DNA of 64,000 nucleotides, taken from NCBI GenBank assembly GCA_016188425.1, contig JACPHX010000003.1:18606-82605 (forward strand), written 5' to 3'. Position 1 is the stretch's first letter, and each line of letters starts with the position of its first letter. Below, one piece after another: positions 9,989 to 37,207 of the stretch. The stretch is from Candidatus Uhrbacteria bacterium. Lineage in GTDB: Bacteria > Patescibacteriota > Patescibacteriia > UBA9934 > GWF2-40-263. Made by a program: the position numbers and the translations under genes. The notes beneath the pieces are model-generated. The model was not told where the DNA came from. It saw nothing but the letters and a program-made list of their open reading frames with translations, and searched no databases.

Positions 9989-10009
9989 GTCACAAACGCT
10001 TCAAACCTC

Positions 10010-10588: not shown

Positions 10589-10673
10589 ATCGGTACCTTT
10601 CTCCCGTTTCACCGCACTCTCCCATAATTGGAAGGCATCGACCGAGCGCTTCATCGCCTTGCGTGACATGCTC

Positions 10674-13126: not shown

Positions 13127-13127
13127 G

Positions 13128-13667
13128 ATGCAATCGATTGCATCTGTGTTGGAACGGTCGGAACCGATCCCGAAAGACTGGAACGAGGCAGCGCAAATGA
13201 AACCCAATATTGACGATCTTATCAAAGCTCGCGACGAGGATGAAACAGACCCTAAGAGAATTAGAGAGGAGGTCACCAGAAAATTGTACGAAGAACACCA
13301 TGATCAGTTGGGAAAAAGGATTGCCAGAGTCAAAGCATCAGATCCGGATCTCAATCAAGACGATATTGACGAAATCCGAAGCACCTTCGAAGCATCCCTT
13401 CGAAGGAAACATTCCGCGTACATAAAAGCGGAGACGCTTCGGTCTTTAGATTTACATCAAATCACCAAAACCAAGGCCGATTCGATTGGCAGAATCATCT
13501 TAGCGCTCGAAGATCTGGAATGGAGTCCTCATGATTTTTGGGAGAGGCTACGGGCATCATGGGACACGGAGCAACTCGATAGAGCCATATTTCATTTTGA
13601 GAAAACAGGAGATGTTTCGCCTTTTCGGTATCTCCGTCCACCACGATCTCTCGGTTCAACGAGATAA
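13128..13667 (+). CDS. Hypothetical protein
   Basis: 179-aa ORF starting ATGCAATCGATTGCA directly after the previous stop. Charged and helical, no recognisable motif. The region looks lower in GC than its flanks. Confidence 0.45.
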   Translation: MQSIASVLERSEPIPKDWNEAAQMKPNIDDLIKARDEDETDPKRIREEVTRKLYEEHHDQLGKRIARVKASDPDLNQDDIDEIRSTFEASLRRKHSAYIKAETLRSLDLHQITKTKADSIGRIILALEDLEWSPHDFWERLRASWDTEQLDRAIFHFEKTGDVSPFRYLRPPRSLGSTR

Positions 13668-13929: not shown

Positions 13930-13957
13930 AGACACTTTGAAAGAAGTGTCTTTTTTG
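13930..13957 (+). terminator. Rho-independent terminator
   Basis: agacactt-tgaaag-aagtgtct followed by TTTTTT. Confidence 0.55.
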
Positions 13958-14017
13958 TTTCTTGCCTCCATAAGACTTGCCCACCTGTCCCATTCCCGTT
14001 AGCATGTCCGTGCCCAC

Positions 14018-14094
14018 GGACGCTTAGCTCAGCCGGTTAGAGCGACTCGTTTACACCGAGTAGGCCGCAGGTTCGAATCCTGCAGCGTCCACCA
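14018..14094 (+). tRNA. tRNA-Val (anticodon TAC), CCA encoded
   Basis: Acceptor GGACGCT/AGCGTCC, D arm GCTC-AGCCGGTTA-GAGC, anticodon stem ACTCG/CGAGT with loop TTTACAC, T loop TTCGAAT, discriminator A then CCA. Confidence 0.85.
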
Positions 14095-15680
14095 TAAAGA
14101 ACTTCTTCATTTTTGGAGGAGTTTTTTGTATTTGCGACAAGTGCTTTTTCCGCTAAAGGAAAGACTTTTCCGAGTACGTCCCCACCATTTGGCTCGTGGT
14201 TCAACAGCAACTTTTGAGCTTGAATCAAATAATTGGCTGCTTTCAATTTTTCAATCGCAGGAATGGCTTGAATTAGCAGAGTTTGACCTTTTAGCTCGCG
14301 GTTCGAACTTAAAACGTTCAATACTTTTCTTTTGACCAAAGGATTGAGTTCTTTGAATTTAAACGGAAGATAATCGAAGACCTGAATCATTTCCATGGTG
14401 AGCTTCCAGAGGACATCTTCCTTCACATCTTCCATCTCGCCAATTTGAAGCCGCAGCGCGTGACGCAGTTCGGTAAGCTCATTCTTGCGAGACAAGCCCT
14501 CGTCAGACGTGAAGTAACCGTCCAGAACGGCTTTGTTGAGTTTTTCAAGCTGTTGATCAATTTGACCGAGCTTCAAATCCAAAGCTTTGCGTTTTGCCTG
14601 ATTATCAACGCGAATCTTGGAAGATAAACGAGCAATGGCCTCTTTGGCATAAACCATGAATTCATCGGCCAGCTCGTACTTTGCCAGATACGCAATGATT
14701 TGATCCTCAATGCGATCCTCACGAATCGTTTGGCGACATTTTGGGTTATGGCACTCAAGATATGTATGGGCTTTGTGGATAGAAGAAACCAAAAAACGAC
14801 CGCACTCACACTTAATCATTTTGGCGTAAGTGAAGTCGTGCAGCACTTTATTTTTTTGAGTTCTTCCATCCAAAATTTCCTGAACCTGATCAAAGAGCTT
14901 TTTGCTGATGATGGTGTCTTGATTACCTTCGTAGAAAGTAGGCTCCGTAGCCCCCTTCTTTTTCCACCGCAACATTCCGTGATAAAAAGGATTTCGAAGC
15001 ATTATATAAAACATGCTCTGGCGAATCGGGTTGCCGCTCGTATTTGTCATGCCACGCTTTCGCATGTATTCGCACAGTGTCACCGCTGAATAGTTGCCAG
15101 TGGCAAACAGTTCGAAGCTCTCCTTCACAAAAGGGGCAACCTTCGGGTCGAGCTGTTTCTTTTTGTGATCCTCGTCAACGCCTTTAATACCGCTTCGATA
15201 ACCGATCGGTGGCGGAGCTGGAAAATATCCCCTAAGTAAACACTCTTCCATTTTTGTACTGACTTCCTCCGACAGGTTTTCCGAATACCAGACAGCCATG
15301 TTACAGAAATTGCGGAAAGCCAGACGCCCTGCGGCACGGCTCGTATCAAATTCGCCCTCGATCACGATCATCTTCTTTTTATTCTTCGTGACCATTTGAT
15401 CAAGTAATGCGAAGTCGGCGACGTTTCGAGAGCTGCGATCCAATTTATGAAAAATAACCCCTTCTATTTCAGGGGTTGAGAGACGTTCAAGCATTGCAGT
15501 GAACTGCGTACGCTTTCCTTTGAAGCCAGATTTGGCCTCGCTGTACCATTCCACGATTTCACATTCCTTGCGCTCTGCGTATTCAGTGATAATGCGTTTT
15601 TGAGCAGGTAGAGAATTGTCCATCTCGGCCTGCGCTTTTGTGGAAACGCGACAATAGGCTACATACTTCTTCATAGGCAT
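14037..15680 (-). CDS. Large serine recombinase (phage integrase)
   Basis: N-terminal resolvase domain with catalytic Ser (VAYCRVSTKAQ), a recombinase domain, a zinc-ribbon region (CECGRFLV...CHNPKC), and a coiled-coil C-terminus. The last ~57 nt overlap tRNA-Val. Confidence 0.9.
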   Translation of the reverse strand: MPMKKYVAYCRVSTKAQAEMDNSLPAQKRIITEYAERKECEIVEWYSEAKSGFKGKRTQFTAMLERLSTPEIEGVIFHKLDRSSRNVADFALLDQMVTKNKKKMIVIEGEFDTSRAAGRLAFRNFCNMAVWYSENLSEEVSTKMEECLLRGYFPAPPPIGYRSGIKGVDEDHKKKQLDPKVAPFVKESFELFATGNYSAVTLCEYMRKRGMTNTSGNPIRQSMFYIMLRNPFYHGMLRWKKKGATEPTFYEGNQDTIISKKLFDQVQEILDGRTQKNKVLHDFTYAKMIKCECGRFLVSSIHKAHTYLECHNPKCRQTIREDRIEDQIIAYLAKYELADEFMVYAKEAIARLSSKIRVDNQAKRKALDLKLGQIDQQLEKLNKAVLDGYFTSDEGLSRKNELTELRHALRLQIGEMEDVKEDVLWKLTMEMIQVFDYLPFKFKELNPLVKRKVLNVLSSNRELKGQTLLIQAIPAIEKLKAANYLIQAQKLLLNHEPNGGDVLGKVFPLAEKALVANTKNSSKNEEVLYGGRCRIRTCGLLGVNESL

Positions 15681-16204
15681 TATTTTGATTTAGAAGGCTT
15701 TTTCTTACCCTTCGGAATGCTCTCGCCTTTATTAATGACCGCATATAGCTCCAAGAGCTTCTCTTTTTCGTCTTTTTCAAGTTCAAGAATACGCAAAATC
15801 ATATCGCGCTCTTCCTTGTCCTTCTGCATGATCTCCTCGATCAGGCGCTTCGTGTCTGGATTCACAACCACATTATTGGCATGGCCGTTCACGATAACGT
15901 TTGAGTCACCGCCTCCAGCCAAAATACCACTAGCCTGAATCAGCGAAGAAAGCTCATCGAACTTCTTGGCTTTTTCGGCAAACGCGGTCAATTCAGGGTT
16001 ATCTTCCCCGAAAAAGTAAGAAAGGGGCTTTTGAAGAGCCTTGGCAACGTCGGGCACGTATTTCTCGGGGTTCTTGATAAACCCGCTTTCGACTTTTTGA
16101 ATTGTGTTGGAAACCGCGCCGATCTTGCGAGAAAGCTCCATCTGGGACATCCCAGCTTCCTCTCTCGCCCGAATAATGCGGTTAACGATGGCATTTAGAG
16201 ACAT
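15680..16204 (-). CDS. XRE-family HTH transcriptional regulator, likely the CI-like prophage repressor
   Basis: N-terminal HTH (GMSQMELSRKIGAVSNTIQKVESG). Divergent from the early + strand genes and adjacent to the integrase. Confidence 0.75.
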   Translation of the reverse strand: MSLNAIVNRIIRAREEAGMSQMELSRKIGAVSNTIQKVESGFIKNPEKYVPDVAKALQKPLSYFFGEDNPELTAFAEKAKKFDELSSLIQASGILAGGGDSNVIVNGHANNVVVNPDTKRLIEEIMQKDKEERDMILRILELEKDEKEKLLELYAVINKGESIPKGKKKPSKSK

Positions 16205-16328
16205 GTGAGTAAAGGTTAATGATTAAAGAATAAAGGCAATGTTCCCGTTCTGTATTGAAGTATAGGAAAGATTAGAATAATAGTCAAGACTAATAACGGA
16301 AAGTTATCAACAGTCATACCAATTTTTC

Positions 16329-16356
16329 TTGACAATCTATTCTAAAAGAGTATGAT
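16329..16356 (+). promoter_or_regulatory. Sigma70-like promoter in the divergent lysogeny switch region
   Basis: TTGACA - 16 nt - TATGAT, about 90 nt upstream of the Cro-like ORF. The intergenic region is AT-rich. Confidence 0.4.
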
Positions 16357-16444
16357 GAACAGTGAAGGAACAGGAAGATGGCTTAGAATGCATATATTTT
16401 TTACCTCCAACTGTTCCGAAATGGAATAACTAACTTGTAAGAAA

Positions 16445-16672
16445 ATGGGCAGACCCTACGCAACAACTTCAGAAACTAGACAAAAAATGTGGGCGCTTTG
16501 GCTCAAAGGCTTCACGTTTATTGAGATTGCCCGCCAATTTAAAACTTACCGTCAAAAGACAAGGTCGATTGTCCTTGCCTACGATCCCACGTTTGAACAA
16601 TTCAAGCAGCACGACGAAAACCGTCGGATCAGGCAAATGGCGGGAAAGCTTTCCCCTAACTTAAATCCATGA
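16445..16672 (+). CDS. Small putative DNA-binding protein (Cro/excisionase-like)
   Basis: 75 aa, basic, with a possible HTH (WLKGFTFIEIARQF). First gene of the rightward early operon. Confidence 0.45.
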   Translation: MGRPYATTSETRQKMWALWLKGFTFIEIARQFKTYRQKTRSIVLAYDPTFEQFKQHDENRRIRQMAGKLSPNLNP

Positions 16673-16675
16673 GGT

Positions 16676-16851
16676 ATGTCCAATACAACACAAGAAAAAT
16701 GGACTCCTCAAGAAGAGGAGATTATCGGGTTCTTCATGGATTTAATACCAGTCCTTCAAGAGGTAAAGGCCGACTTAGAGCAGAAAGGCCTCCTTAATAA
16801 AGCAGTATGTGTGAGCGGCGGAGAGTCTGCTCCGCAGCCCATTAACTCTTA
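16676..16851 (+). CDS. Small hypothetical phage protein (58 aa)
   Basis: ATG at 16676 (MSNTTQEKWTPQEEEIIGFFMDLIPVLQEV...) directly after the previous stop. Below the ORF-track size cutoff. Confidence 0.3.
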
Positions 16852-17115
16852 ATCATATGCAAATACAAGTTTTCTCAGACGAATGGTGGTTCCAGCTGAC
16901 AGTCATGCTCATCCTCATCAGCGGGTTCGCACTAACGCTCTGCATCATGGAACTCGCGGTCTGCATATGGGCGGAGCTGACTGGGCGGCAGACAGACCTG
17001 CCAACGCAAGAAAGCGTACACCGATTCTTCATGAGAATCAGGCTCGCGCTGATCCGAAGGCGGAGACGCAAAGCCTACAAGAACCAACCACTTAATAATT
17101 TAATCACCAAATCTT

Positions 17116-18036
17116 ATGACCAAAACACTAGCCATATCGGCACAAGACGCGGGCGCAATCTGGCAAGAACAGACAAAACTCGCCGAGGTTAAGAAAATTT
17201 ACGGCAAAGACCTGACGGACTCGGAATTCGCAATCCTCGTCCAGATAGGCCAAGCCACGCACCTGAACCCCTTCTTGCGGGAAATCTGGGCGGTGAAATA
17301 CGGAACCAGCCCCGCTCAAATCTTTATCGGGCGCGACGGCTACCGCAAGGCAGCCCAATCGAATCCAGACTACGACTACCACTTGGCGGACGCGGTCTAC
17401 CAAAACGACGACTTCAAGATCGAAGACGGCGAGGTTCGCCATACCTATTCAGGAAAGGATCGCGGAGCTCTGGTCGGCGCCTACTGCGTGGTGAAAAGAA
17501 AAAGCTCCACCAAGACAATGTTCAACTTCGTCGACATCAAGGAATACAGCACGGGCAAAAGCCTCTGGGTCGGCAAGCCAGCAACAATGATTAAGAAGGT
17601 GGCCGAAGCTCAAGGATTGCGCATGGCCTTCCAGCAACTCTTTGCGGGAACCTATGACGAAACCGAGGCTTGGGAAGAACCAGCAAAATCACTACCACAA
17701 CCAAAAGAAGAAAAGCGCATTCAGCCAAAAACTGGAGAGGCGCTTTTTGTGGCATGGAACGAACTCTGGGATTTGTACATGGAAAAGTATCCCGATGAAC
17801 GCACCGACACTGGCGAACTGAAATTCTCGCCCGAGAAATCCGAAGCTACCCGCAAGCTGACCTTCCTCAAGAACTACAAAAAGGAAAGCTCAACCGAGCT
17901 GACCGATAAGGAAGCCAAAGACTTCATCTGCCGCTGCGAAGAAAAAATCGCGGAACTAAAGAAACTTCCCGAACCGACTAAAGCGCAGGAAGTTTCCGTG
18001 AAGCAGATGAAGAAATCACCTGCCCTAGCAGGATAA
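17116..18036 (+). CDS. recT: RecT-family single-strand annealing recombinase
   Basis: 306 aa with RecT core (LTDSEFAILVQIGQATHLNPF...GKPATMIKKVAEAQGLRMAFQQ). Paired with a downstream PD-(D/E)xK exonuclease. Confidence 0.8.
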   Translation: MTKTLAISAQDAGAIWQEQTKLAEVKKIYGKDLTDSEFAILVQIGQATHLNPFLREIWAVKYGTSPAQIFIGRDGYRKAAQSNPDYDYHLADAVYQNDDFKIEDGEVRHTYSGKDRGALVGAYCVVKRKSSTKTMFNFVDIKEYSTGKSLWVGKPATMIKKVAEAQGLRMAFQQLFAGTYDETEAWEEPAKSLPQPKEEKRIQPKTGEALFVAWNELWDLYMEKYPDERTDTGELKFSPEKSEATRKLTFLKNYKKESSTELTDKEAKDFICRCEEKIAELKKLPEPTKAQEVSVKQMKKSPALAG

Positions 18037-18057
18037 CAATAATTAACCAATCCTACT

Positions 18058-18480
18058 ATGAAAAAACTTCATATTCGCCCAGTCGAGGCGAGCAACAACG
18101 GCAAAAAGGAACGTTGGTGGGCGGTTCAGGAAAAGGATGAACACGGAAACTTTGTGACACTCATCAACGGAATATTCTCGCATGCCTATCCTCGGCGCGA
18201 GATGGCGATGGAAGCCCGCGAAATGTTGCTTAAGAAAGCCGAGAGCAAACATCCTCGCAGCGTCTACACCCACCGCTACTACGAGGAAGAAGACTACAAC
18301 TACTTGAGCCAAAAAGGATATTCGGACGAAGAGATCGAGGAAATCTGGAACCGCGACATCAAGCACGACATCGTCTCGAATTTGCTCTGGCTCGAAGTGA
18401 ATGAACCAGAGGTGGCAAAAGACGTACTCGCCGAGTACGAACGCCTCAGAGAAAACAATCCTTACAAATCTAACTCTTAA
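18058..18480 (+). CDS. Hypothetical phage protein
   Basis: 140-aa ORF with coding-like composition and no motif I recognise. Confidence 0.45.
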   Translation: MKKLHIRPVEASNNGKKERWWAVQEKDEHGNFVTLINGIFSHAYPRREMAMEAREMLLKKAESKHPRSVYTHRYYEEEDYNYLSQKGYSDEEIEEIWNRDIKHDIVSNLLWLEVNEPEVAKDVLAEYERLRENNPYKSNS

Positions 18481-18484
18481 CACT

Positions 18485-19447
18485 ATGATCAGAACCGCTG
18501 AAAGCGTCAGCCCAATGCACCCCGACAAAATGTGCGACCGAATCTCGGACGCAATTCTCGACGCCTATCTCAAAGAAGATAAGAATGCGCGTTGCGCCAT
18601 CGAGGTCATGGGCGGGCACGAGCTCATCCAAGTGATGGGCGAAGTAACATCAAACGCAAAGCCAGACATTCGAGAGATTGTCCGCAGGATCGCTGGCAAC
18701 CTCGAATGCAATATCCACCTCGTAACCCAATCGCCCGAGATAGCCCAAGGCGTGGACAAAGGCGGAGCTGGCGACCAAGGAATCATGGTCGGCTACGCCT
18801 GCAATGAAAACGAGGCGCTCATTCCGCGAGAACTGTATCTTGCGCGAAGCCTTTGCAAGCACCTTTACGAACTTCATCCCGATGACGGCAAAACGCAAAT
18901 CACCGTGGGTGAAGACGGCAAAGTGGCCGTGATCATAGCCTCATGGCGAAACATCACATCGGCCAAGCTCTACAAGGAAATCATGCTCTGGGTCGAGAAA
19001 GAAAAGATCGCCTTCATAAAGAACGCGCAAATCACAATGAACTCCGCTGGCGACTGGGATAAAGGCGGATTCGACGCCGACACTGGACTCACGGGAAGAA
19101 AAATCGTCGTGGATGCCTATGGCAGCCGCGTGCCAGTCGGCGGCGGAGCCTTCTCAGGAAAAGACGCCACAAAGGTTGACCGCTCAGGCGCTTACAAGGC
19201 CAGACAGGAAGCCGTGAGACTGCTTAAAGAAAGAAACGCGAAAGAAGTAACCGTCTTCGTCGCCTATGCGATCGGACAAGAAAAACCAGTGCAAGCGACC
19301 GCGATAATTGACGGCAAAGAAGAGGAACTCGATTTGGAACGGTTCACACCGCAAGCCATCATCGAGGTTCTTGAACTTGATCAGCCCATCTATGAGCAAA
19401 CCGCCGAATGGGGACATTTCGGCAACGGCTTTAGGTGGGATTATTAA
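18485..19447 (+). CDS. metK: S-adenosylmethionine synthetase (MetK), short phage-encoded form
   Basis: MHPDKMCDRISDAILDA (GHPDK motif), GAGDQGIMVGYA, DTGLTGRKIVVDAYG, GGGAFSGKDATKVDRSGAYKAR and C-terminal EWGHFG are all MetK signatures. The central domain is shortened (320 aa in total). Confidence 0.85.
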   Translation: MIRTAESVSPMHPDKMCDRISDAILDAYLKEDKNARCAIEVMGGHELIQVMGEVTSNAKPDIREIVRRIAGNLECNIHLVTQSPEIAQGVDKGGAGDQGIMVGYACNENEALIPRELYLARSLCKHLYELHPDDGKTQITVGEDGKVAVIIASWRNITSAKLYKEIMLWVEKEKIAFIKNAQITMNSAGDWDKGGFDADTGLTGRKIVVDAYGSRVPVGGGAFSGKDATKVDRSGAYKARQEAVRLLKERNAKEVTVFVAYAIGQEKPVQATAIIDGKEEELDLERFTPQAIIEVLELDQPIYEQTAEWGHFGNGFRWDY

Positions 19448-19466
19448 TTTTTTACCAATCTTAACG

Positions 19467-20423
19467 ATGAAAAATATGAAAACTTTAATCACTAAATCGC
19501 AGCTCGCGAACTTCCCAGTACCGTACCTGTCGATGTCCGCGATCCGCAATTACCTGACTGACAGACAGTCGTTCTTCAGACGCTATGTGCGCCTTGAATT
19601 CGACGAGAAAGAAAGCCCCGCCCTACTCGAAGGCAAAACCCTTCATGCGATTATCGAAGGCTATTGGAAAGCCAAGCAGGAAGGCAAAGAATTTAACTGG
19701 AGCGAAGCGGTCGATCTGGCTCTGCAGGATTTTAGTCAACGAGATGTCGCAGGCGTGGTCGACTGGGGAAAAACAGGAAGCTTTGAGAAATCCGCAAAGA
19801 GCGTGATCCAAGCGGCTGAATTTTATCAGGCAGCTATACCCGACTACAAAGAAATCGTGGCCGTGGAAAAGAAATTCGTTTCCGACTTCGAAGACCTCGA
19901 CGGCAAAACCATGCCGATAGCCCTGAAAGGCTTCTGCGATTTGATCGTAAAAGACGGAGACGATTACATCATCGTCGACCACAAAACGGTGACCATGGTG
20001 AAAGAGCAAAATGAATTGGCGCCAGCCTTTGAAATGCAAGCAGCAGTTTACTGGTTCCTGATCCGCAAAGAGTTCGGAGTGAACCCTAAGAGAATGATCT
20101 TCGACCAGATCAAGAAGACAAAATGCCGCGACGGATCACCGCAGGTCGTGCCGTATGTGATCGAATACACTCCCGTGATTCTGCAACGCTTCCTCGAGAT
20201 TTACGGCCGCGTGGTGCGAGAGCTTGCTGGCCAACCGCTTATCGACGAAGAGACGGGCATCGTGCAATTCCTGCCAAACCCATTCGCCGCCTTCGGCTGG
20301 GAAGAGTCATGGCAGGACTTCTGCGAAGAGGTCGATACGCAGAGGCAGTGGACGCTCGGCGAAATCAAAACGATCCAGCAAAACCGCTACTCCGACAAGG
20401 GAGTGGAAGCTTTGGATATCTAG
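19467..20423 (+). CDS. PD-(D/E)xK family exonuclease (RecB/Cas4-like), probable partner of RecT
   Basis: GFCDLIVKDGDDYIIVDHKT is a D..E.K catalytic motif. Start at MKNMKTLITK. Confidence 0.65.
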   Translation: MKNMKTLITKSQLANFPVPYLSMSAIRNYLTDRQSFFRRYVRLEFDEKESPALLEGKTLHAIIEGYWKAKQEGKEFNWSEAVDLALQDFSQRDVAGVVDWGKTGSFEKSAKSVIQAAEFYQAAIPDYKEIVAVEKKFVSDFEDLDGKTMPIALKGFCDLIVKDGDDYIIVDHKTVTMVKEQNELAPAFEMQAAVYWFLIRKEFGVNPKRMIFDQIKKTKCRDGSPQVVPYVIEYTPVILQRFLEIYGRVVRELAGQPLIDEETGIVQFLPNPFAAFGWEESWQDFCEEVDTQRQWTLGEIKTIQQNRYSDKGVEALDI

Positions 20424-20444
20424 CAATTATCACTATGTAAACCT

Positions 20445-21248
20445 ATGGCGAGACCAGAAAAGAACACAGTCGATTATTTTCCTCACTACGTATACAGCGG
20501 TAAAACGCTGTTTACGGTTGAGCAGCGTTTTGGAAACGACGGCTATGCTTTTCTGTTCAAAATTCTGGAAGTATTGGGCAAGACCGAAAACCATTTTATT
20601 GACTGCAGAAAACCCGAGGATTACGAGTATCTGCTCGCAATAACCAAGGTGAGCCGAGATAAGGCGGAAGAAATCATGGCACTGCTCACGACTCTCGGAA
20701 CTTTTGATGCGGATTTGTGGAAGCATCGGATCATCTACAGCGATAATTTTATAAAAAATCTGGAAGGAGTTTACGAGAGGCGAAAAAGGAAAACGCTGAC
20801 GAAACAGGATTTATGCAAACAATTATCCATTAAATGCAAACAGAAACCCGCCTCAAGATCATTACCGTCCGCCGAAACACCACAAAGTAAAGTAAAGGAG
20901 AGTAAAGAAAAGAAAAGTGAAGGAGAGAAAAGTATAGGAGATAGTGACGGAATTTCTGACGAAATTCCTCCATCCCAAGAAGCGAGAGGTTATTTTGAAA
21001 AAATTTTGGGGATGAATTTACCCGAAGGCGATATGGAAAGACAGTTTGCGGAATATTGGACGGAAAAAAATAAAAACGGAAACAAACAAAGATGGGAATT
21101 GGAAAAAACTTTTGAGGTTAAAAAGAGACTGGCTACATGGCGCCGCAAAACCGAAGAATATAATTCAAAATTTTATGGAAAAAATCAGCGAGATAATCAC
21201 AGAGACGGACAAGTCTCAACCGAAGGACACGCAGACTTGGTCGTGTAG
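20445..21248 (+). CDS. Phage replisome organiser / replication initiation protein N-terminal domain (DUF4373-like)
   Basis: N-terminus DYFPHYVYSGKTLFTVEQRFGNDGYAFLFKILEVLG resembles the DUF4373 replisome organiser domain. Low-complexity Lys/Glu-rich tail. Confidence 0.5.
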   Translation: MARPEKNTVDYFPHYVYSGKTLFTVEQRFGNDGYAFLFKILEVLGKTENHFIDCRKPEDYEYLLAITKVSRDKAEEIMALLTTLGTFDADLWKHRIIYSDNFIKNLEGVYERRKRKTLTKQDLCKQLSIKCKQKPASRSLPSAETPQSKVKESKEKKSEGEKSIGDSDGISDEIPPSQEARGYFEKILGMNLPEGDMERQFAEYWTEKNKNGNKQRWELEKTFEVKKRLATWRRKTEEYNSKFYGKNQRDNHRDGQVSTEGHADLVV

Positions 21249-21993
21249 TGACTGCCGCGATCGCGGCTTTACCGAAACCTCCGTGTTCTATCAAGCCTTC
21301 GGCATGAGCGACAAACATTTCTGCCCTGAATGCGAGAGAGGCCGCGCCATGTACGAATCGTGGCGAAACGAACCCGAGAGGCAGGCCATACAGCGTGCAT
21401 GGAAACAGGAAAAAATTGAGCGCGCTCTGCGAATATCCGAGATCGATGGCCTATTTCGGGAAAAGCGGCTGAATAATTTAAAAAACTGCCCGAAACTTCA
21501 TGATGAAATCGCCAAGTACCTTAAGAACTGGAAAACCATGAAACAACACGGTTACGGCTTCTACTTCTGGGGCAATGTCGGTGCTGGCAAAACACACACG
21601 GCGATTGTACTGGCCAATGAACTCATGGAGCGAGAAATGGTTGAAGTACTCTTCCTAAACATTCCCGAGACGATCACGCGCATAAAAAATACCTTTGACA
21701 GCGAGATCAAATCCGAAGACTCAAGACTCTTTGACCGCATGAAGGAAATGGAAATGCTCGTACTCGATGATATTGGCGTTGAAAAGTATTCCGATTGGCT
21801 GTCTGACCAGATGTATCAAATAATCGACCACCGCTGGAAAAACCGCAAACCGATGGTGCTGACTTCAAACCTTTCCCTTGAAGACCTGAGCAAGAAATAC
21901 AAACCGCAGGTCGCTTCACGGATCAGGGGCTGCTGTAAAGCAATCCGTTTCAATGAGCAAGATCGCAGGCAACAATCAGCTCCTCTTTTTTAA
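21175..21993 (+). CDS. DnaC/IstB-like AAA+ helicase loader
   Basis: Walker A GNVGAGKTH and Walker B MLVLDDIG. Start at MEKISEI (ATG 21175) overlapping the end of the previous gene; the true start could be further upstream. Confidence 0.7.
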   Translation: MEKISEIITETDKSQPKDTQTWSCSDCRDRGFTETSVFYQAFGMSDKHFCPECERGRAMYESWRNEPERQAIQRAWKQEKIERALRISEIDGLFREKRLNNLKNCPKLHDEIAKYLKNWKTMKQHGYGFYFWGNVGAGKTHTAIVLANELMEREMVEVLFLNIPETITRIKNTFDSEIKSEDSRLFDRMKEMEMLVLDDIGVEKYSDWLSDQMYQIIDHRWKNRKPMVLTSNLSLEDLSKKYKPQVASRIRGCCKAIRFNEQDRRQQSAPLF

Positions 21994-22002
21994 CAAACTA
22001 CC

Positions 22003-22365
22003 ATGAGACATTTTTACCACAACAACGGCAACAAATTCGGAAACCGCAAAACAACGGTCGACGGCATCGAATTTGCGAGCGCCAAGGAAGCTCGACGCTA
22101 CATGGAGCTCAAACTTCTGCAAAGGACTGGAGAGATCAAGAACCTGAAAGTGCAACCGCGCTTCGAACTACTTCCATCGTTCAGGCATGAAGGCAAAGCG
22201 GAACGGAAGATCGAGTATGTTGCGGACTTCAGCTACACCACAAAGGACGGCGAAAAGATTGTTGAAGACGTCAAATCAATCATTACAAAAAACCATCCTG
22301 TCTACCGTCTCAAGAGGAAGCTTCTCCTCTTCAGGCATAAGGATTTTACATTCTTAGAAACTTAA
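22003..22365 (+). CDS. DUF1064 phage protein
   Basis: GNRKTTVDGIEFASAKEARRYMELKLLQRTGEIKNLKVQPRFEL matches the DUF1064 family common in phage replication modules. Confidence 0.55.
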   Translation: MRHFYHNNGNKFGNRKTTVDGIEFASAKEARRYMELKLLQRTGEIKNLKVQPRFELLPSFRHEGKAERKIEYVADFSYTTKDGEKIVEDVKSIITKNHPVYRLKRKLLLFRHKDFTFLET

Positions 22366-22370
22366 AGTTT

Positions 22371-22574
22371 ATGGAAAACATCCCTATCAAAACGGCTCGC
22401 GGCAACTACATTCTCTTCAAATATCTCGTAAAAGAAGGGGCTCCGCTAGTAGAAATCAAAGACCGAAATAAGAAATTTTGGTATTATAAATTCGAGAACG
22501 GAGAGTTCAAAGTCGTAACCGTCACATCAAAGTCCCTCTTCGAGGAACTTCCCGAACTGCTTGAAAATGCATAG
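22371..22574 (+). CDS. Hypothetical phage protein
   Basis: 67-aa ORF in the operon. Confidence 0.35.
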   Translation: MENIPIKTARGNYILFKYLVKEGAPLVEIKDRNKKFWYYKFENGEFKVVTVTSKSLFEELPELLENA

Positions 22575-22670
22575 GCTCGGCCTATACTCAAGCAAATATC
22601 GGAACCCAGTCTTAAAGACCATTTGCCCGCAAAAACGGGCTTCGCATGGTCTTTTTTTAATTTTACCCCT

Positions 22671-23927
22671 ATGAAAATCGAACAAGTAAACATCGAACAA
22701 CTCATCTTCGCGGATTACAACCCGCGCGCCTCGACCGAAAAGGAAGAGCAAGAACTCAAGAAATCCATTGAGCGTTTTGGCTTTGTGGAGCCTGTGATCG
22801 TGAACAGCGACGCCAAAAGAAAAAACATTATCATCGGCGGACACTTCCGCGTGCGCATGGCCAAGAAAATGGGCATCAAAGAAGTGCCCGTGCATTACAT
22901 CAAAATCAGCGACATCAAAAAGGAAAAGGAACTGAATCTCCGCCTCAACAAAAACTTGGGACACTGGGACATGGATCTGCTCGCGAACTTCGACGAAGAA
23001 ACGCTTCTCGACGTGGGTTTTGATTCGGCCGAGATTGATCAGCTCTTCCTGAACCTCGATCCAGACGACAAGGACGACGAAGTGCCCGAGCTGCCAGAAA
23101 CGGCCGTCTCAAAGCTGGGTGAAATCTACCTGCTCGGCGAACACCGCCTGATGTGCGGAGACTCAACCAGCAAAGAGGATGTGGCTAAGCTCATGAACAA
23201 CCAGAAAGCCGACATGGTCTTCACCGATCCTCCCTACAACGTGAACTACAAAGGGTCGGGCGAAAAGACCAAGAACCACATCAAGAATGACAACATGAGC
23301 GACGACGCCTTCACTGACTTTCTGACCAAGTCATTTCAGAACTACCGCGAATCAATGAAGGCTGGCTCGGGTATTTATGTCTTTCACAGCTCATCAACGC
23401 AACGGCAATTCGAAGGCGCCTTGGAAAAGACGGGATTCGAAGTGAAGAGCCAACTCATCTGGAATAAGCCGTCGAGCGCGCTCGGCTGGGGCGATTACCG
23501 ATGGAAACATGAACCGTTCTTTTACGCTGGAATCAAGGGCGAAAAGATACAGTTTTACGGCGACCGCTCCCACTCGAGCGTCTGGGACTTTCAGAAATCG
23601 GAAAAGGAATTGCTCTCATGGGCTCAACGCATGAAACGTTATGAGCAGCAAGGAAAAACCACAGTATGGAGTATGTCCCGCAGTAATGTGCAGGAATACG
23701 TCCATCCAACGCAAAAGCCCGTTGAGCTCGTCTCCTACGCCATCGTAAACAGCAGCAAATCTGGAGATATCGTGCTCGACCTGTTTATGGGCTCGGGCTC
23801 GGCTTTGATTGCCTGCGAGAAAACCCACCGCGTGTCTTACGGCATGGAACTCGACCCGAAATACGTCGACGTGATCGTAAAACGCTGGGAAGACTTCACG
23901 GGCAAGAAGGCCAAAAAATCCTCCTAA
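22671..23927 (+). CDS. ParB-like nuclease domain fused to a DNA methyltransferase (beta-class N6A/N4C)
   Basis: N-terminal ParB/Srx fold (NPRASTEKEEQELKKSIERFGFVEPVIV...GGHFRVRMA). MTase motif IV DMVFTDPPYNV, then motif I VLDLFMGSGSALIA in beta-class order. Confidence 0.85.
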   Translation: MKIEQVNIEQLIFADYNPRASTEKEEQELKKSIERFGFVEPVIVNSDAKRKNIIIGGHFRVRMAKKMGIKEVPVHYIKISDIKKEKELNLRLNKNLGHWDMDLLANFDEETLLDVGFDSAEIDQLFLNLDPDDKDDEVPELPETAVSKLGEIYLLGEHRLMCGDSTSKEDVAKLMNNQKADMVFTDPPYNVNYKGSGEKTKNHIKNDNMSDDAFTDFLTKSFQNYRESMKAGSGIYVFHSSSTQRQFEGALEKTGFEVKSQLIWNKPSSALGWGDYRWKHEPFFYAGIKGEKIQFYGDRSHSSVWDFQKSEKELLSWAQRMKRYEQQGKTTVWSMSRSNVQEYVHPTQKPVELVSYAIVNSSKSGDIVLDLFMGSGSALIACEKTHRVSYGMELDPKYVDVIVKRWEDFTGKKAKKSS

Positions 23928-23974
23928 CATGTGACGCTTGTTACACGGACGGGGGTGCTTACTAACTCACTTTT

Positions 23975-24325
23975 ATGCAAGGCAAGAAAACTACAGCTCG
24001 GGACAAAAAACTCTTCCTTGCGGCGCTACAACGCCGCAAAGGGATTGTTACGCTTGCCTGCAAAGAAGTGAACATAAGCTCAATGACCTTTTACCGATGG
24101 CAAAAAGACGATCCTGATTTTTACCAGAAATCAGAGGAAATCCGATACATCGAAATCGGCATTATCGCCGAAGACAGGCTTGCGGAAGCCATCATCGTAA
24201 ACAAGGACATGAACATGGTGCGCTTCTATCTGCAAACCAGAAATCATAAATACATGATGAAGCAACAACTTCAGTTCGAAGACCCAACCATCGAGCTGGC
24301 CAAATTATTATCCAAAGACGAATGA
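23975..24325 (+). CDS. Terminase small subunit (putative)
   Basis: 116 aa with HTH-like ITLACKEVNISSMTFYRWQK, directly upstream of and overlapping TerL. Confidence 0.5.
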   Translation: MQGKKTTARDKKLFLAALQRRKGIVTLACKEVNISSMTFYRWQKDDPDFYQKSEEIRYIEIGIIAEDRLAEAIIVNKDMNMVRFYLQTRNHKYMMKQQLQFEDPTIELAKLLSKDE

Positions 24326-25704
24326 TCATAGACCTGCCAAAAACTTACCGAGGGTTGAACCTGTTTGGGGAGAAATACTTCAAACGGCCATTCACGGAAT
24401 ACCAGCGGACGATCGCCGAACAGATTCTCCGTACTATTTTTGTGGGAGGCGGTGAAGAGGTGTTCATCGAGGTATCAAGGCAAGCGGGAAAAACCACGGC
24501 CGTCGTGGATGCGATCGCCTACCTCATGACGTTTGCCCACCACTTCTTCCCAACGCCTCTAGCGATCGGCATTTTTGCTCCTCAAAAAGAACAGGCAAAA
24601 ACGGACTTCGATCGTCTCAAAGAAAACCTGCGCATATTGAAAACCATCTACCGATTAGATTTTGAAGAGTCTAACGGAACCACTCTCAAGCTCGGCAACG
24701 GCAATACGATTTACTGTTTCTCGCTCTCGCCAACGTCACACTTGGAAAGCAAATCGCTCCATCTGGCCATTATTGAGGAAGCCCAAAAGATCGACGACGA
24801 AAAGGCGAAGAATGAAGTTTTCCCGATGTTGGCTTCAACCAATGGCAGCAAGATATTCATCGGCTCGGGCGGATATCAACTGTGCAATTTCTATCGAGGA
24901 ATTGAGAACGGCAAGAACGTATTCAAGTACGACTATCAGCAAGTGATCGCAGACAAAGAACGCCTGCACGCCAAAACAAAGAACCGCATGCACCTTAAAT
25001 ACAAAGACTTTATCGAGGGCGAAAAGGAACGCTACCGCGAAGACAGCGACTACTTTCAAACGCAGTACGCGCTTGAATGGAAAATAGGACGCGGAATGCT
25101 TATAACCAAGGTCGATCTCGAAAAGCTCAGGCGAGACTACAACGTGAAGCTGCCGTACGAAAACCCCGTGTATGTTGGCTGGGATATTGCCAAAGAGGAA
25201 GACGAAAGCGTGATGACTGTAATCGGTTGGGACGAAGACCTGAAAAAATACAAAATCCTGTGCTGGTTGGCGATGAAGGGCGATGACTATACCGAACAGG
25301 TCGAGATTGTGGCGAAGGAGCTTACCAAGTTTAAGCATGTCATGAAGATCTGCATTGACGCCACGGGCGTCGGCGATCCAGTGGTCGATAACTTCAAGAA
25401 ACAAACCCGCTACAACACCGAACCTGTGAAATTCAGCCTGCAGACCAAGGATACGCTCTACAAGAACTTGATCAAGGTACTGCGAGATGAAGAACTCACA
25501 TACCAAAACGGTCACAAGTACGCTCCTAAATTCGAGAATCAAATGCTGGACATGGTCAAGGAATACAAGGGCGAATTCCTGTCGTGCCATCACCCAGAGA
25601 AAGCGGGCGCGCACGACGACTTCCCAGACAGCCTCGCCCTCGCACTTTATAAAGCAAGAAAAATAACCGACGTGAATCTTAATCGTCACGATCTCGGACT
25701 TTAA
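24322..25704 (+). CDS. Terminase large subunit
   Basis: Walker A VSRQAGKTTAV, Walker B LAIIEEAQ, and a C-terminal nuclease-fold region. Position before the portal. Confidence 0.8.
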   Translation: MIIDLPKTYRGLNLFGEKYFKRPFTEYQRTIAEQILRTIFVGGGEEVFIEVSRQAGKTTAVVDAIAYLMTFAHHFFPTPLAIGIFAPQKEQAKTDFDRLKENLRILKTIYRLDFEESNGTTLKLGNGNTIYCFSLSPTSHLESKSLHLAIIEEAQKIDDEKAKNEVFPMLASTNGSKIFIGSGGYQLCNFYRGIENGKNVFKYDYQQVIADKERLHAKTKNRMHLKYKDFIEGEKERYREDSDYFQTQYALEWKIGRGMLITKVDLEKLRRDYNVKLPYENPVYVGWDIAKEEDESVMTVIGWDEDLKKYKILCWLAMKGDDYTEQVEIVAKELTKFKHVMKICIDATGVGDPVVDNFKKQTRYNTEPVKFSLQTKDTLYKNLIKVLRDEELTYQNGHKYAPKFENQMLDMVKEYKGEFLSCHHPEKAGAHDDFPDSLALALYKARKITDVNLNRHDLGL

Positions 25705-25721
25705 TCATTTAACTAACCCAT

Positions 25722-27137
25722 ATGAGCGACATCACAACACAATTCCCGACCAATGATGACTTTAACCGCGTTGCCAAACTGAACAATTACTACAACGTGT
25801 TCAAAGGGCTTCATAGCAAGGTATTCAAACTCAAAAGCTACTTCGAGGAAGACAGCAAGAAAAAGACGCTGCTCTATCTCGCGTACAACGTCGGCCAGAT
25901 AGTATCGCTGACCGCCGCCGACTTTCTGTTCGGCGAGCAACTAAAGATTCAGACCAACGAATCCGAAGATCAAAAGCCGATGGAAAAGAAAATCAATACC
26001 ATCATTCAAAACAACTACCTCGACGAAAAGCTCTATCAAAGCGCCGTCATGCAGGACGTGGCTGGCTTTGCCATAATTACCGTACGGCAAAAGGATAAAG
26101 CGGCAATCATCGAGGAAGTGCCATACGACAATTACTACCCCGACTTCACGGGCGTGCGTCTCGGCGAGGAGCCTCGGCAAATCGTGATCGCTTCCTACGT
26201 CGACCTCGTGAATCCGAAGAACCAAAAAAAGGAAACCTTCCTCTACAAGCAAATCCACAAACTTGAAAACAGCAAAGGCAAAATCGTGCATGAGCTCTGG
26301 ACGACCACGCCCGACATGAAGCAATCGCAACTGACTGAACTGGCATTATTCAGCGCCGATCTGCCAGCCGAGGAAGATACGGAGCTGGACTACATACCAA
26401 TTTTCCAGATTGATAACTTCAAGACGGTAAAGGAACGCTTCGGAATCTCCACTTACGAAAGCGTGATGAATTTGTTTGAGGAAATAAACGACCGCATTAC
26501 GCAAATCTCCGTGCAGCTTATTAAGCACCTGAATTCAAAGGTGGCTGTTGGCGAGGGCGTGCTCAGCAAAAAGGGCGAAATAGATAGTACTCAGGATATC
26601 TTCCTCGTTGAAAAGGGCGACATCATTCCGCAATACATCACCAATTCCAATCCGCTTATCGAGGAAGGATTTAAGCAGATCGAAGGACTCATTCGTCAGA
26701 TTTGCACAGTCACGCAGACACCTGCATCGTTTTTGGGGTTAGATGATAAAGGCGGAGTGGAAAAGGTTGAAACGGCAAAGCTCCGTATGGCCTCATTCCT
26801 CAAGAAGATCAAACGCAAGCAACGTAGTTACGAGGCCAAGCTGGTGGATATTTTGAAGACGGCGTTGTTCTTTGAAGGCGCCAAGAAATTTCCAGACAAC
26901 GTCGACATCTCTTTCGCATGGGACTTGGGATTGCCGCGTGATTTATTTACCGAAGCGCAAACGCATCAGATCATGGTTGAAAGCGGCATGGAAAGCAAAG
27001 AGACGGCCATTCGAGAGCTCAAAGGCTTTGACGGTGAGACATTGCAAAACGAGCTCGATAAGATCGAAAAACAAAATGAAATGTCGACCTACCAGATAGA
27101 TCAAGCACGCAAGCAGATTCCTGATATCAGCCTTTAA
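25722..27137 (+). CDS. Portal protein (putative)
   Basis: 471 aa, immediately after TerL and before the head morphogenesis gene. Call is by position; I recognise no strong motif. Confidence 0.55.
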   Translation: MSDITTQFPTNDDFNRVAKLNNYYNVFKGLHSKVFKLKSYFEEDSKKKTLLYLAYNVGQIVSLTAADFLFGEQLKIQTNESEDQKPMEKKINTIIQNNYLDEKLYQSAVMQDVAGFAIITVRQKDKAAIIEEVPYDNYYPDFTGVRLGEEPRQIVIASYVDLVNPKNQKKETFLYKQIHKLENSKGKIVHELWTTTPDMKQSQLTELALFSADLPAEEDTELDYIPIFQIDNFKTVKERFGISTYESVMNLFEEINDRITQISVQLIKHLNSKVAVGEGVLSKKGEIDSTQDIFLVEKGDIIPQYITNSNPLIEEGFKQIEGLIRQICTVTQTPASFLGLDDKGGVEKVETAKLRMASFLKKIKRKQRSYEAKLVDILKTALFFEGAKKFPDNVDISFAWDLGLPRDLFTEAQTHQIMVESGMESKETAIRELKGFDGETLQNELDKIEKQNEMSTYQIDQARKQIPDISL

Positions 27138-27342
27138 CCCGATACCGTATGAGCTACAACACCCATCCTAATCCTTACCAAAAGCACCTCACCTCCGAGG
27201 AAGTGCTGCAAAAGCGACTTGAAAACATAGATCGCAATTGGCTGAAGTACGCAAAGGTCGCGTTGATTTGCCATCTTCTGTTGCTAGTCTTTCTATTCAC
27301 GGTGATCGTGACGGTGCGTTTCGCATTCTTAATTTTTTAACT

Positions 27343-28113
27343 ATGGCCAACGAAAGTAAACTCATCAACATATACCGCCGAGCGACGCGCCAGCTCGAGA
27401 CGACTGTCAGGCGTGCCGATCCAAGGAAACCAATAATTCTGATTCGGAAAGTGATCATGGGAGACATCAACAAGATTGCTGCAGACCTTGAGCGCGAAAC
27501 AAAGAACTGGCTCGTTGTTGAAATTCCACAGGAATACAAAAAAGGCAGTCAACAAGCCGTGGACGACGCTGGGAAACTCGGACTTACATTCGACAAGACT
27601 GGCTTCGGACAAGTTCACAAAGAAGCCATTCAAGCTCTGACCGAAGACGCTTATCTCGACTTTGCATCTGGCATCGAGGGTGTGCGACGCGCTGGCCGAG
27701 GATTTGTGAGCGACATCGTAAAGAAGAAAATCAATGAACGTATCGTCTCAGGGCAACTCGAAGGCAAAGCTTTGGACAACGTGAAGCGCGAAGTAAAGCA
27801 ACTCGTCGAAGACACTGGATTCACCGCGCTGGTAGACCGAGGCGGAAAGCATTGGGCTATCGATAGTTACGCCGAAATGCTCGTGCGCACGCATGTGATC
27901 AAAGCCAACGGTGAAGGGACAAGAAATCGCTTATTGAGCAATCGGGTGGACTTGGTCGAGATCTCCACTCATGCCACAGCGTGCCCGATCTGCCAGCCCT
28001 ATGAGGGCAGAGTTTATAGCCTGACTGGGAAAAGTGAGGGGTACGATAAAGCGCCTGAATTGCCGATCCATCCGAACTGCAGACACAGCTATATGCCTTA
28101 TATAGAGGATTAA
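27343..28113 (+). CDS. Head morphogenesis protein (Mu F / SPP1 gp7-like minor capsid protein)
   Basis: C-terminal CPICQPYEGRVY...HPNCRHSYMPY is the characteristic Mu F-like motif. Confidence 0.7.
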   Translation: MANESKLINIYRRATRQLETTVRRADPRKPIILIRKVIMGDINKIAADLERETKNWLVVEIPQEYKKGSQQAVDDAGKLGLTFDKTGFGQVHKEAIQALTEDAYLDFASGIEGVRRAGRGFVSDIVKKKINERIVSGQLEGKALDNVKREVKQLVEDTGFTALVDRGGKHWAIDSYAEMLVRTHVIKANGEGTRNRLLSNRVDLVEISTHATACPICQPYEGRVYSLTGKSEGYDKAPELPIHPNCRHSYMPYIED

Positions 28114-28228
28114 CGGATTTCCACAGGCATAAGCCCCGAAATGGGGCTATTTTGGTCTTGAAAAATAATCTCAAAGTGGTACTATAATGATGACGCTGTC
28201 CTGCAAACACTTAATTACATGCAATATT

Positions 28229-28450
28229 ATGGCAGAGAATAAACAACCCGAAAAAACCATAGGGCAAAAAATCAAAGAATTGCGTAAAAAAAAGGATTTA
28301 ACGCAAGAGGGTTTGGCGCGCAAAGCTGATCTTCCGTATACCACTCTTGTTAAAATTGAAGGCGACGCGATTCAGAATCCTACGCTCGATACTATTACAA
28401 AAATAGCAGCGGGATTGGAAGTCTCTTTGGATGATTTAATAAACTCATAA
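28229..28450 (+). CDS. XRE-family HTH regulator, candidate controller (C-protein-like) of the downstream Type I R-M genes
   Basis: IGQKIKELRKKKDLTQEGLARKADLPYTTLVKIEGDAIQNPTLDTITKIAAGL is a textbook XRE HTH. Its stop lies 3 nt before the hsdM start. Confidence 0.7.
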   Translation: MAENKQPEKTIGQKIKELRKKKDLTQEGLARKADLPYTTLVKIEGDAIQNPTLDTITKIAAGLEVSLDDLINS

Positions 28451-28453
28451 TCT

Positions 28454-30718: not shown

Positions 30719-30726
30719 TAATTCTT

Positions 30727-32560: not shown

Positions 32561-32564
32561 TCTT

Positions 32565-34076: not shown

Positions 34077-34083
34077 TAAATCT

Positions 34084-37200: not shown

Positions 37201-37207
37201 AATAACT

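Follow-up and report, generated by a model that had tools for sequence, protein, structure and literature searches.

The question addressed here is why a prophage should encode its own S-adenosylmethionine (SAM) synthetase, MetK. The gene lies in a 64,000-nucleotide stretch of DNA from a Candidatus Uhrbacteria bacterium (NCBI GenBank assembly GCA_016188425.1, contig JACPHX010000003.1, positions 18,606 to 82,605), which is referred to as the window and is numbered from its first letter. In this window an intact, integrated, siphovirus-like temperate tailed prophage of approximately 42 kb carries metK together with an orphan DNA methyltransferase (MTase), in which a ParB_N domain is fused to a beta-class N6_N4 MTase domain (ParB-MTase). 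An earlier reading of the letters alone, made without database searches (the sequence-only reading), had supposed that the phage boosts the SAM supply for self-methylation, either to evade host restriction or to serve a restriction-modification (R-M) system of its own. On balance, we lean towards the view that MetK is an auxiliary metabolic gene (AMG) that feeds SAM to self-methylation of the phage.

Prophage MetK has the features of a working SAM synthetase

The 320-aa product of metK (NCBI accession MBI2550837.1 by exact-sequence match, named "methionine adenosyltransferase domain-containing protein") contained all three S-AdoMet_synt Pfam domains (_N, _M and _C; 82.3, 51.8 and 125.2 bits against gathering scores of 33.1, 29 and 25). 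It matched phrog_1569 (3.9e-92), and solved MetK/MAT enzymes were matched at E = 1e-50 to 1e-54 in a phmmer search of PDB. Among the signatures listed in the sequence-only reading, GAGDQG, GGGAFSGKD and VDRS were found as described, but the supposed GHPDK is in fact MHPDK, one residue having been given wrongly. When MetK was aligned to the E. coli MetK reference sequence, which agreed with PDB 7ll3, 15 of the 16 catalytic or ligand-binding residues were the same (E. coli numbering: His14, Asp16, Lys17, Glu42, Glu55, Gln98, Asp118, Asp163, Lys165, Asp238, Arg244, Lys245, Lys265, Lys269 and Asp271), the exception being Phe230, which is replaced by Trp. All of the metal-, phosphate- and methionine-binding positions checked were kept, and the catalytic residues were invariant in 38 compact MetK homologues. 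The Lys and Asp of the HPDK region and the Lys of GKD, whose absence the sequence-only reading would have taken as the mark of a protein that is no synthetase, are intact.

An AF2 monomer model of MetK, built on an alignment of compact homologues, was confident (mean pLDDT 90.5, pTM 0.89) and reproduced the canonical three-fold pseudo-symmetric alpha/beta three-domain fold; Foldseek gave query-normalised TM values of 0.87–0.91 to MetKs including those of E. coli and human (7loo, 5h9u, 2obv and others). The gene is also under strong purifying selection, since dN/dS against the 94% identical orthologue of locus L005 was 0.033, comparable to the values for TerL (0.046) and the portal protein (0.046). 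Judged by its residues, fold and selection, the prophage MetK is apparently a bona fide and catalytically competent homologue that would be expected to possess synthetase activity. It is scarcely credible that the protein instead binds SAM as a non-catalytic decoy, or poisons the host MetK by joining it in dead hetero-oligomers. Such a role could appeal to a length 64 residues below that of E. coli MetK, to a score under the cut-off of the equivalog model TIGR01034 and to a shortened gating loop. However, the 15 identical residues, including those that bind metal, phosphate and methionine, the confident AF2 model and the low dN/dS leave this idea unsupported, and the same compact architecture is found in the chromosomal MetK of Patescibacteria.

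MetK belongs to a compact subfamily

The sequence-only reading had called MetK short and had presumed that a region is deleted. The length of 320 aa stands, but alignment showed scattered loop trims and no one deleted region: approximately 67 residues of E. coli MetK were missing, taken from roughly ten loops and from the C-terminal tail (gaps at E. coli positions 2–4, 75–89, 111–115, 154–161, 173–180, 193–195, 209–213 and 321–332, and the last 14 residues). According to this alignment, the losses are trimmed loops and every domain is retained. In a search of 5.8 billion proteins, in which 8000 matches were scored, all 120 matches listed were 310–349 aa long, and this uniformity indicates a large compact MetK subfamily, which is structurally uncharacterised. 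Chromosomal members were found in Saccharibacteria (locus L054, among genes for a tRNA U5-methyltransferase, KsgA, a two-component system and RmuC, a synteny common to several genomes), in Peribacteria (L075, near rplB, encoding ribosomal protein L2) and in another member of the Patescibacteria (L016, between genes for ATP synthase, the D-Ala-D-Ala ligase Ddl and pyruvate kinase). Because these chromosomal copies are equally compact, the size of approximately 320 aa is a trait of the lineage from whose gene pool the phage acquired metK, and is not specific to the phage.

In a distance-based neighbour-joining tree without support values, the sampled prophage MetKs formed one clade inside the compact radiation, and this clade was not sister to the single chromosomal Peribacteria copy sampled. 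The topology suggests an old acquisition of MetK, followed by inheritance within the phage family. Since compact MetKs fall under the TIGR01034 cut-off, they receive only the domain-level name quoted above at NCBI, and automated metabolic reconstruction of genomes of the Candidate Phyla Radiation (CPR) could therefore miss SAM synthesis; AMG calling would be affected as well.

A compact MetK (58% identical) was also observed at positions 10001–10960 of locus L085, alone in a genome of approximately 3 Mb, where its neighbours encode surface proteins with a T9SS-type sorting domain (Por_Secre_tail) and an alkaline phosphatase, with a DDE transposase gene approximately 4 kb away. Further compact MetKs occurred in Cloacimonadota and in bins labelled "Gammaproteobacteria". 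These occurrences suggest that the compact form moves outside the CPR as well.

MetK and ParB-MTase are kept together in the early gene block

ParB-MTase contains ParB_N (PF02195, residues 18–98, 1.6e-10) and N6_N4_Mtase (PF01555, residues 197–419, 5e-34), and its DPPY motif (motif IV) lies N-terminal to the FxGxG motif (motif I, here FMGSGS), which is the beta-class order. The protein matched phrog_498, "DNA methyltransferase" (3e-145), and was assigned by PADLOC to the class MTase_II; a match to TIGR00180 was under the cut-off of that model, and the scores were far under the CcrM and PRK11524 equivalog cut-offs. Relatives were present in 1144 phage records, with deposited phage copies at most approximately 42% identical. 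No endonuclease gene was recognised by Pfam or PHROG among its neighbours (DUF1064, orf67, TerS and TerL); the 67-aa orf67 had no match, and a tiny partner is conceivable.

Both genes belong to the early block, in the order claimed by the sequence-only reading, which had placed the MetK start at 18485 and the ParB-MTase stop at 23927; both positions match the open reading frames (ORFs) exactly. MetK is spaced by 4 bp from orf140 and by 19 bp from the exonuclease gene, as would be expected if these genes were co-transcribed. The best plus-strand promoter-like site (TTGACA-16-TATGAT, 16329–16356) lies by the cI/cro-type switch, and from the repressor switch to 27313 the plus strand has one weak terminator-like hairpin (23788–23801, 5 pairs, poor T tail); as the promoter and terminator scan as a whole performed no better than on shuffled sequences, the position of the best site and the scarcity of terminators are only suggestive. 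No radical-SAM or other SAM-using enzymes were found among the phage genes scanned, and a link of MetK to such enzymes was rejected.

A scan of species-representative genomes yielded at least 557 metK loci, the best 80 of which were analysed. Within these 80, the nearest relatives of MetK were all from Patescibacteria/CPR: a Ca. Peregrinibacteria UBA1369 member (94%) and a complete Peregrinibacteria genome (76%), followed by Peribacteria and a "Gracilibacteria" chromosome (approximately 60%) and by dozens of Saccharibacteria and other Patescibacteria (54–60%). A tblastn search with the prophage proteins of the window identified the same type of prophage in loci L004/L005, L006, L007, L008 and L036, and it was also found in L086 (CP065009.1). 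The shared order is integrase, repressor, RecT, orf140, MetK, exonuclease, replication genes, DUF1064, orf67, ParB-MTase, TerS, TerL, portal and minor capsid protein. The portion from RecT to TerL was conserved in L004/L005, L006, L008, L036 and L086, with MetK identity down to 59–62%, while the sequence of the Peribacteria locus L007 stops before the MTase position and shows the left part only. MetK and ParB-MTase thus occurred together in every related prophage that reaches that far, namely five prophages and one IMG/VR contig, on which MetK is 98% identical. The distribution points to Peregrinibacteria, Peribacteria and UBA1369 CPR bacteria as the host lineage of the phage; the metagenome-assembled genome containing the window carries the label Ca. 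Uhrbacteria. Among deposited phage records (INPHARED), megablast found no near-identical DNA for 15700–28200, and the phage family is without a close relative in that collection.

The MetK of L006 (CP064978.1; 10001–10960, 76% identical) was considered as a divergent or recombinant copy and rejected as such, being spread over three reading frames with several frameshifts. Matches to RecT, the replication organiser and the portal protein were truncated in this locus too. The frameshifts are probably indel errors of long-read assembly and not a sign of prophage decay.

DNA methyltransferase genes cluster around viral metK

In a tblastn search of 50,697 deposited phage records, MetK was encoded in 161, for the most part Streptococcus prophages, metagenomic phages of the gut and Faecalibacterium phage FP_Brigit; a MetK relative was also encoded on at least 595 IMG/VR contigs. 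Matches in Helicobacter "phages" are not phage genes but metK copies of the host that lie beside the sites of prophage insertion. The sequence-only reading had called phage-encoded MetK rare, which is correct as to frequency but not as to novelty, for the gene is recurrent, annotated and published and has its own PHROG. In Ca. Heliusvirales, MetK occurs in 58.9% of genomes and Dcm in 67% (PMC11283538), and metK of groundwater viruses has been described as a viral AMG of cysteine/methionine metabolism (PMC10980836).

The search for other phages that pair MetK with an MTase, which the sequence-only reading had recommended, showed that the pairing recurs. Javan244 carries MetK, an adenine MTase and a cytosine MTase, followed by terminase, and in Javan630 MetK directly adjoins a ParB-type MTase that shares 42% identity with the prophage ParB-MTase. 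Within the genome scan, three unrelated loci (L015, L021 and L035) had MetK beside a ParB-MTase or another MTase. The 80 best IMG/VR metK loci were then screened for DNA MTases with a small seed panel (phmmer plus one round of hidden Markov model search). An MTase was detected in 40 of the 80, within 3 kb of metK in 35 and within 100 bp in 22, always on the MetK strand; these counts are lower bounds because of the small panel. Among genome-scan (chromosomal) loci, 6 of 76 had an MTase within 3 kb, as against 35 of 80 viral loci (Fisher p = 2e-7, computed over viral loci that are not phylogenetically independent), and MTase density in the viral loci, which served as an internal control, was 0.102/kb within 3 kb of metK versus 0.019/kb beyond, an approximately 5-fold difference. 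The direction of this effect, a clustering of MTases near viral metK, is solid, but its size is not.

The Type I R-M system lies in a variable cargo slot

The sequence-only reading had noted a Type I hsdM in the same prophage. This was borne out, and it understated the content of the prophage, which holds a complete Type I system (HsdM, HsdS and HsdR) as well as CBASS and PARIS genes. As annotated with Pfam and PADLOC, the island that contains them encodes, in order, a Type I HsdM-S fusion, a CBASS 1TM effector, a CBASS cyclase, a fused PARIS AriAB, HsdR and a Cas4-like nuclease, so that the CBASS and PARIS genes separate hsdMS from hsdR. HsdM-S is a single 754-aa protein (HsdM_N, N6_Mtase and Methylase_S) with one target-recognition domain detected in its S part, and HsdR contains HSDR_N, SWI2_SNF2 and T1RH-like_C domains (REase_I at E = 0).

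Type I enzymes need SAM as a cofactor, and with a complete HsdM-S and HsdR system in the same prophage, MetK could in principle supply SAM for its methylation and restriction activities. We nevertheless consider this very improbable. The R-M genes are in a low-GC variable island preceded by its own terminator-like hairpin and promoter-like site, and the slot that holds it, 3' of the minor-capsid-protein-2 gene (window 28113–28454; L004 19719–20963; L086 20037–20987), is a cargo hotspot. Relatives with 73–94% identical MetK carry other cargo there, namely DUF5655, helix-turn-helix (HTH) and N6_N4 MTase genes in L004, and genes for an HTH protein and a PLDc_2/SNF2 helicase protein in L086. Different cargo beside the same MetK indicates that MetK was in place before the Type I system and does not depend on it, which ties MetK to the early block and ParB-MTase instead.

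A proposed role for MetK in self-methylation of the phage

As a whole, these data led us to favor, with limited confidence, the following scheme. After induction or infection, metK would be transcribed with the early recombination and replication genes from a repressor-controlled promoter, and MetK would make SAM out of ATP and methionine. This SAM would sustain the orphan ParB-fused adenine DNA MTase encoded at the end of the block, just before terminase. Spending one SAM per methyl group, ParB-MTase would mark newly replicated phage genomes before packaging, and progeny with methylated DNA would withstand restriction upon infecting the next host. Of the ideas in the sequence-only reading, a functional link of MetK to the DNA MTase of the phage is favored by comparative evidence (co-conservation, the Javan phages and the density of MTases around viral metK), whereas service to the phage's own R-M system is disfavored by the variable cargo slot.

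Several observations weigh against this proposal. MetK scored 251.8 bits with the NCBIfam metK equivalog model TIGR01034, below the trusted cut-off of 309.4; since the chromosomal compact MetK of Saccharibacteria (L054) fails too (284.7) while the Javan244 phage MetK passes (420.6), we attribute the shortfall to loop deletions common to the whole compact subfamily and not to a defect of this gene. A compact MetK with a solved structure was not found in PDB by phmmer, and the active-site gating loop lacks 5 residues at its tip relative to E. coli MetK, so that the kinetics of MetK may differ. MetK and ParB-MTase are not adjacent but are separated by 3.2 kb and five genes. Half of the viral MetK loci had no MTase in the available DNA, and MetK clearly also occurs with no MTase nearby; furthermore, because the viral loci are not phylogenetically independent, the enrichment statistics suggest more independent events than there were. 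Finally, a prophage metK of S. agalactiae that was deleted and complemented has been linked to aggregation, biofilm and glycocalyx phenotypes rather than to DNA methylation (PMC8223999).

Some of these points would equally suit the main alternative, a general metabolic booster, that is, a MetK that sustains SAM and the methyl cycle (RNA and protein methylation, polyamines for DNA condensation) in a minimal host, or alters lysogen physiology, with no special tie to an MTase. We regard this as unlikely, yet as deserving serious consideration. The gene is routinely listed as a viral AMG of cysteine/methionine metabolism (PMC10980836, PMC11283538), and the S. agalactiae prophage gene affects aggregation and glycocalyx (PMC8223999); 45 of the 80 viral MetK loci are without a DNA MTase inside 3 kb, and chromosomal metK of Saccharibacteria adjoins RNA methyltransferase genes. 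A booster does not, however, account for the 5-fold higher density of DNA MTases close to viral metK or for the strict co-conservation of MetK with ParB-MTase in the prophage family, and metK is located in the early lytic block and not in the cargo slot for lysogen-expressed genes.

The supply of SAM to ParB-MTase might also be limiting in these hosts. As a rough estimate, not computed from the data of the present analysis, a published cell volume of ~0.01 cubic micrometres and ~0.2 mM SAM give in the order of 1,000 SAM molecules per cell. It is conceivable, though doubtful, that the standing SAM pool in ultra-small CPR cells is too small for the methylation of one phage burst, so that the phage MetK would be required; in a stronger variant, lysogens would have lost their own metK and would rely on that of the prophage. 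Such a limitation, if true, would explain why MetK and ParB-MTase were kept together through divergence to approximately 60% identity. CPR phage biology is barely known, and SAM economy in the CPR may be unusually tight.

It is quite unlikely that the prophage copy is essential, in the sense that a lysogen without chromosomal metK depends on the prophage for SAM, making the gene an addiction-like stabiliser. CPR genomes are strongly reduced, the 64-kb window has no second metK, and no protein of CP064978.1, CP065009.1, OY760177.1, DBRL01000014.1 or the window contig was among the 120 closest relatives of the chromosomal Peribacteria MetK; this absence is uninformative, as the searches covered no more than the 80 top-scoring loci, out of at least 557, and the top 120 proteins. 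On the other hand, the related Peribacteria L075 has a chromosomal compact metK near rplB, and an early lytic block is normally silenced by the repressor in a lysogen.

Relation to known systems

The closest parallel to the arrangement described here is in Streptococcus Javan and group-A prophages (Javan244, Javan630, 12/111phiA), in which MetK is likewise encoded in a replication-proximal block of a temperate siphovirus and is followed by adenine and/or cytosine MTases before terminase. Their MetKs are also somewhat shortened (336–345 aa) and have a short gating loop, but they are only 39–42% identical, pass TIGR01034 (420 bits) and come from another host phylum; in group B Streptococcus, prophage metK has been studied for host phenotypes and not for DNA methylation (PMC8223999). 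A similar pairing exists in Ca. Heliusvirales, where metK and a DNA methyltransferase gene rank as the two most frequent "AMGs" of the same genomes (PMC11283538), and the gene order of Faecalibacterium phage FP_Brigit (RecT, replisome organiser, DnaI, ... MetK ... ParB-like, terminase) resembles that of the prophage. Unlike the prophage protein, the MetKs of Heliusvirales and gut phages are of full length (FP_Brigit, 392 aa), approximately 40% identical and from Firmicutes hosts. Chromosomal MetKs of Patescibacteria (Saccharibacteria, Peribacteria and Parcubacteria groups) share the length of approximately 320 aa and the same loop deletions at 54–62% identity, but they stand in housekeeping neighbourhoods, whereas the prophage copies form their own clade within the radiation. 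E. coli MetK and human MAT2A share the three-domain fold and the catalytic residues, but identity is 35–39% and 67 loop and tail residues of E. coli MetK are absent here.

ParB-MTase resembles other orphan ParB-domain MTases of phages (phrog_498, CcrM-related beta class) in combining ParB_N with N6_N4_Mtase, in having DPPY before FxGxG, and in being encoded directly upstream of terminase with no partner endonuclease. Phage T3 SAM lyase (SAMase) also manipulates the host SAM pool in relation to restriction and BREX (bioRxiv 10.1101/2023.02.27.530186), but its strategy is the opposite: it destroys SAM, inhibits MetK and disarms SAM-dependent defence, whereas the phage described here would raise SAM for the benefit of its own protective methylase. 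The two proteins have no sequence relationship.

Each component, and the co-occurrence of MetK with MTases, is already known; the locus adds one more case to a strategy already known, and the discovery is for that reason modest. What is new is that the pairing is set in a CPR prophage family that is conserved, that the prophage MetK is recognised as a compact CPR-type enzyme which the NCBI equivalog model misses, and that DNA methylases are shown semi-quantitatively to cluster around viral metK. The family offers a clean, conserved case of a pairing of MetK with an orphan DNA methylase that is widely annotated, and for which no mechanistic test was found in the literature searched. In the open-access literature, we found nothing specific on a compact, CPR or viral minimal MetK, nor on experiments linking a phage MetK to self-methylation.

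Prophage organization and genomic context

The features of the prophage region are listed in Table 1. The designation as a prophage in the sequence-only reading is confirmed by the presence of a serine integrase, a cI-like repressor, RecT, terminase, structural and lysis genes (portal, minor capsid protein, major head, major tail, tape measure and endolysin, downstream of the early block) and with a contrast in GC content (0.49 in the prophage, 0.55 in the host flanks). The flanks carry NusA, ArgRS, TyrRS and ValRS genes, with aminoacyl-tRNA synthetase/NusA genes on both sides. Homology to the related prophages begins at 14025. No exact repeat of at least 12 bp links 13951–14150 with anything past 40 kb, as expected for a serine integrase; without such an attachment-site repeat, the right prophage end is only approximate (~55.5–56.9 kb).

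Table 1. Positions of features in the window (nucleotides; residues refer to the encoded protein)
Feature	Position	Strand	Remarks
tRNA-Val(tac)	14018-14094	+	ARAGORN
Large serine recombinase, left prophage end	14037-15680	-	Resolvase and Recombinase domains; 3' end overlaps tRNA-Val
cI-like repressor (HTH)	15680-16204	-	Faces early block
Divergent promoter-like sites	16259-16366		Between cI-like repressor and early block; consensus scan
RecT-family single-strand annealing protein	17116-18036	+	PF03837, 7e-33; PHROG RecT/Bet-like
orf140	18058-18480	+	No Pfam/PHROG match; ends 4 bp before MetK start
Compact MetK (SAM synthetase)	18485-19447	+	320 aa, ATG start at 18485
MetK motif MHPDK	18515-18529		Residues 11-15
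MetK motif GAGDQG	18764-18781		Residues 94-99
MetK motif GGGAFSGKD	19139-19165		Residues 219-227; VDRS at residues 231-234
PD-(D/E)XK exonuclease, RecT recombination partner	19467-20423	+	PF12705; PHROG exonuclease; start ATG 19467 or 19476
Replication initiator/replisome organiser (Lin1244_N)	20445-21248	+	PF14297; phrog_2562
DnaC/IstB-like helicase loader	21304-21993	+	PF01695; phrog_50, 2.9e-57; start 21175, 21283 or 21304; L004 orthologue 229 aa
DUF1064, Holliday-junction-resolvase-like	22003-22365	+	PF06356; phrog_190
orf67	22371-22574	+	67 aa; no Pfam/PHROG match; conserved in related prophages
Orphan ParB_N + beta-class N6_N4 DNA methyltransferase fusion (ParB-MTase)	22623-23927	+	434 aa from TTG 22623; 418 aa from ATG 22671
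ParB-MTase motif DPPY	23226-23237		Residues 202-205
ParB-MTase motif FMGSGS	23784-23801		Residues 388-393
TerS and TerL	23975-25704	+	TerS 23975-24325, TerL 24322-25704; phrog_4044; Terminase_6N/6C; directly 3' of ParB-MTase
Terminator-like hairpin before island	28132-28148
Promoter-like site before island	28158-28185
Variable low-GC defence island in prophage	28454-37969	+	9.5 kb, GC 0.423; Pfam, PADLOC
CBASS 1TM effector	30727-31251
CBASS cyclase	31238-32560
PARIS AriAB, fused	32565-34076
Cas4-like PD-(D/E)XK nuclease	37178-37969

The product of orf140 was 92–94% identical in L004–L006 and 49% identical in L008, at the same place upstream of MetK; in L086, an 80-aa ORF overlapping the MetK start stands in for it. 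No Shine-Dalgarno-like purine run was seen in the 20 nt preceding each of 15 phage gene starts (17116–34084); these stretches were A/T/C-rich, as is the one before MetK (CAAATCTAACTCTTAACACT). The stop codons of these 15 genes were TAA (11), TAG (3) and TGA (1).

A tRNA gene adjoins or overlaps the 3' end of the gene for the serine integrase in each related prophage, and the integrases are 56–81% identical. The tRNA sites are 14018–14094 in the window, 5516–5592 in L005, 5517–5592 in L006, 5210–5286 in L008, 5672–5747 in L036, 5476–5552 in L086 and 6263–6339 in L007, and the tRNAs differ (Val-tac, Ala-cgc, Met-cat twice, Pro-tgg and Ala-ggc twice). The integrase ORF of the window continues through the T-arm of tRNA-Val. 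A serine integrase that targets tRNA genes of changing identity is unusual. In the left host flank, a Mutator-family transposase gene and, before tRNA-Val, a DUF5131 "phage Gp37/Gp68 family" gene with a 179-aa ORF were observed (8638–9936 and 12395–13667); these transposase and DUF5131 genes may be the remnant of another mobile element.

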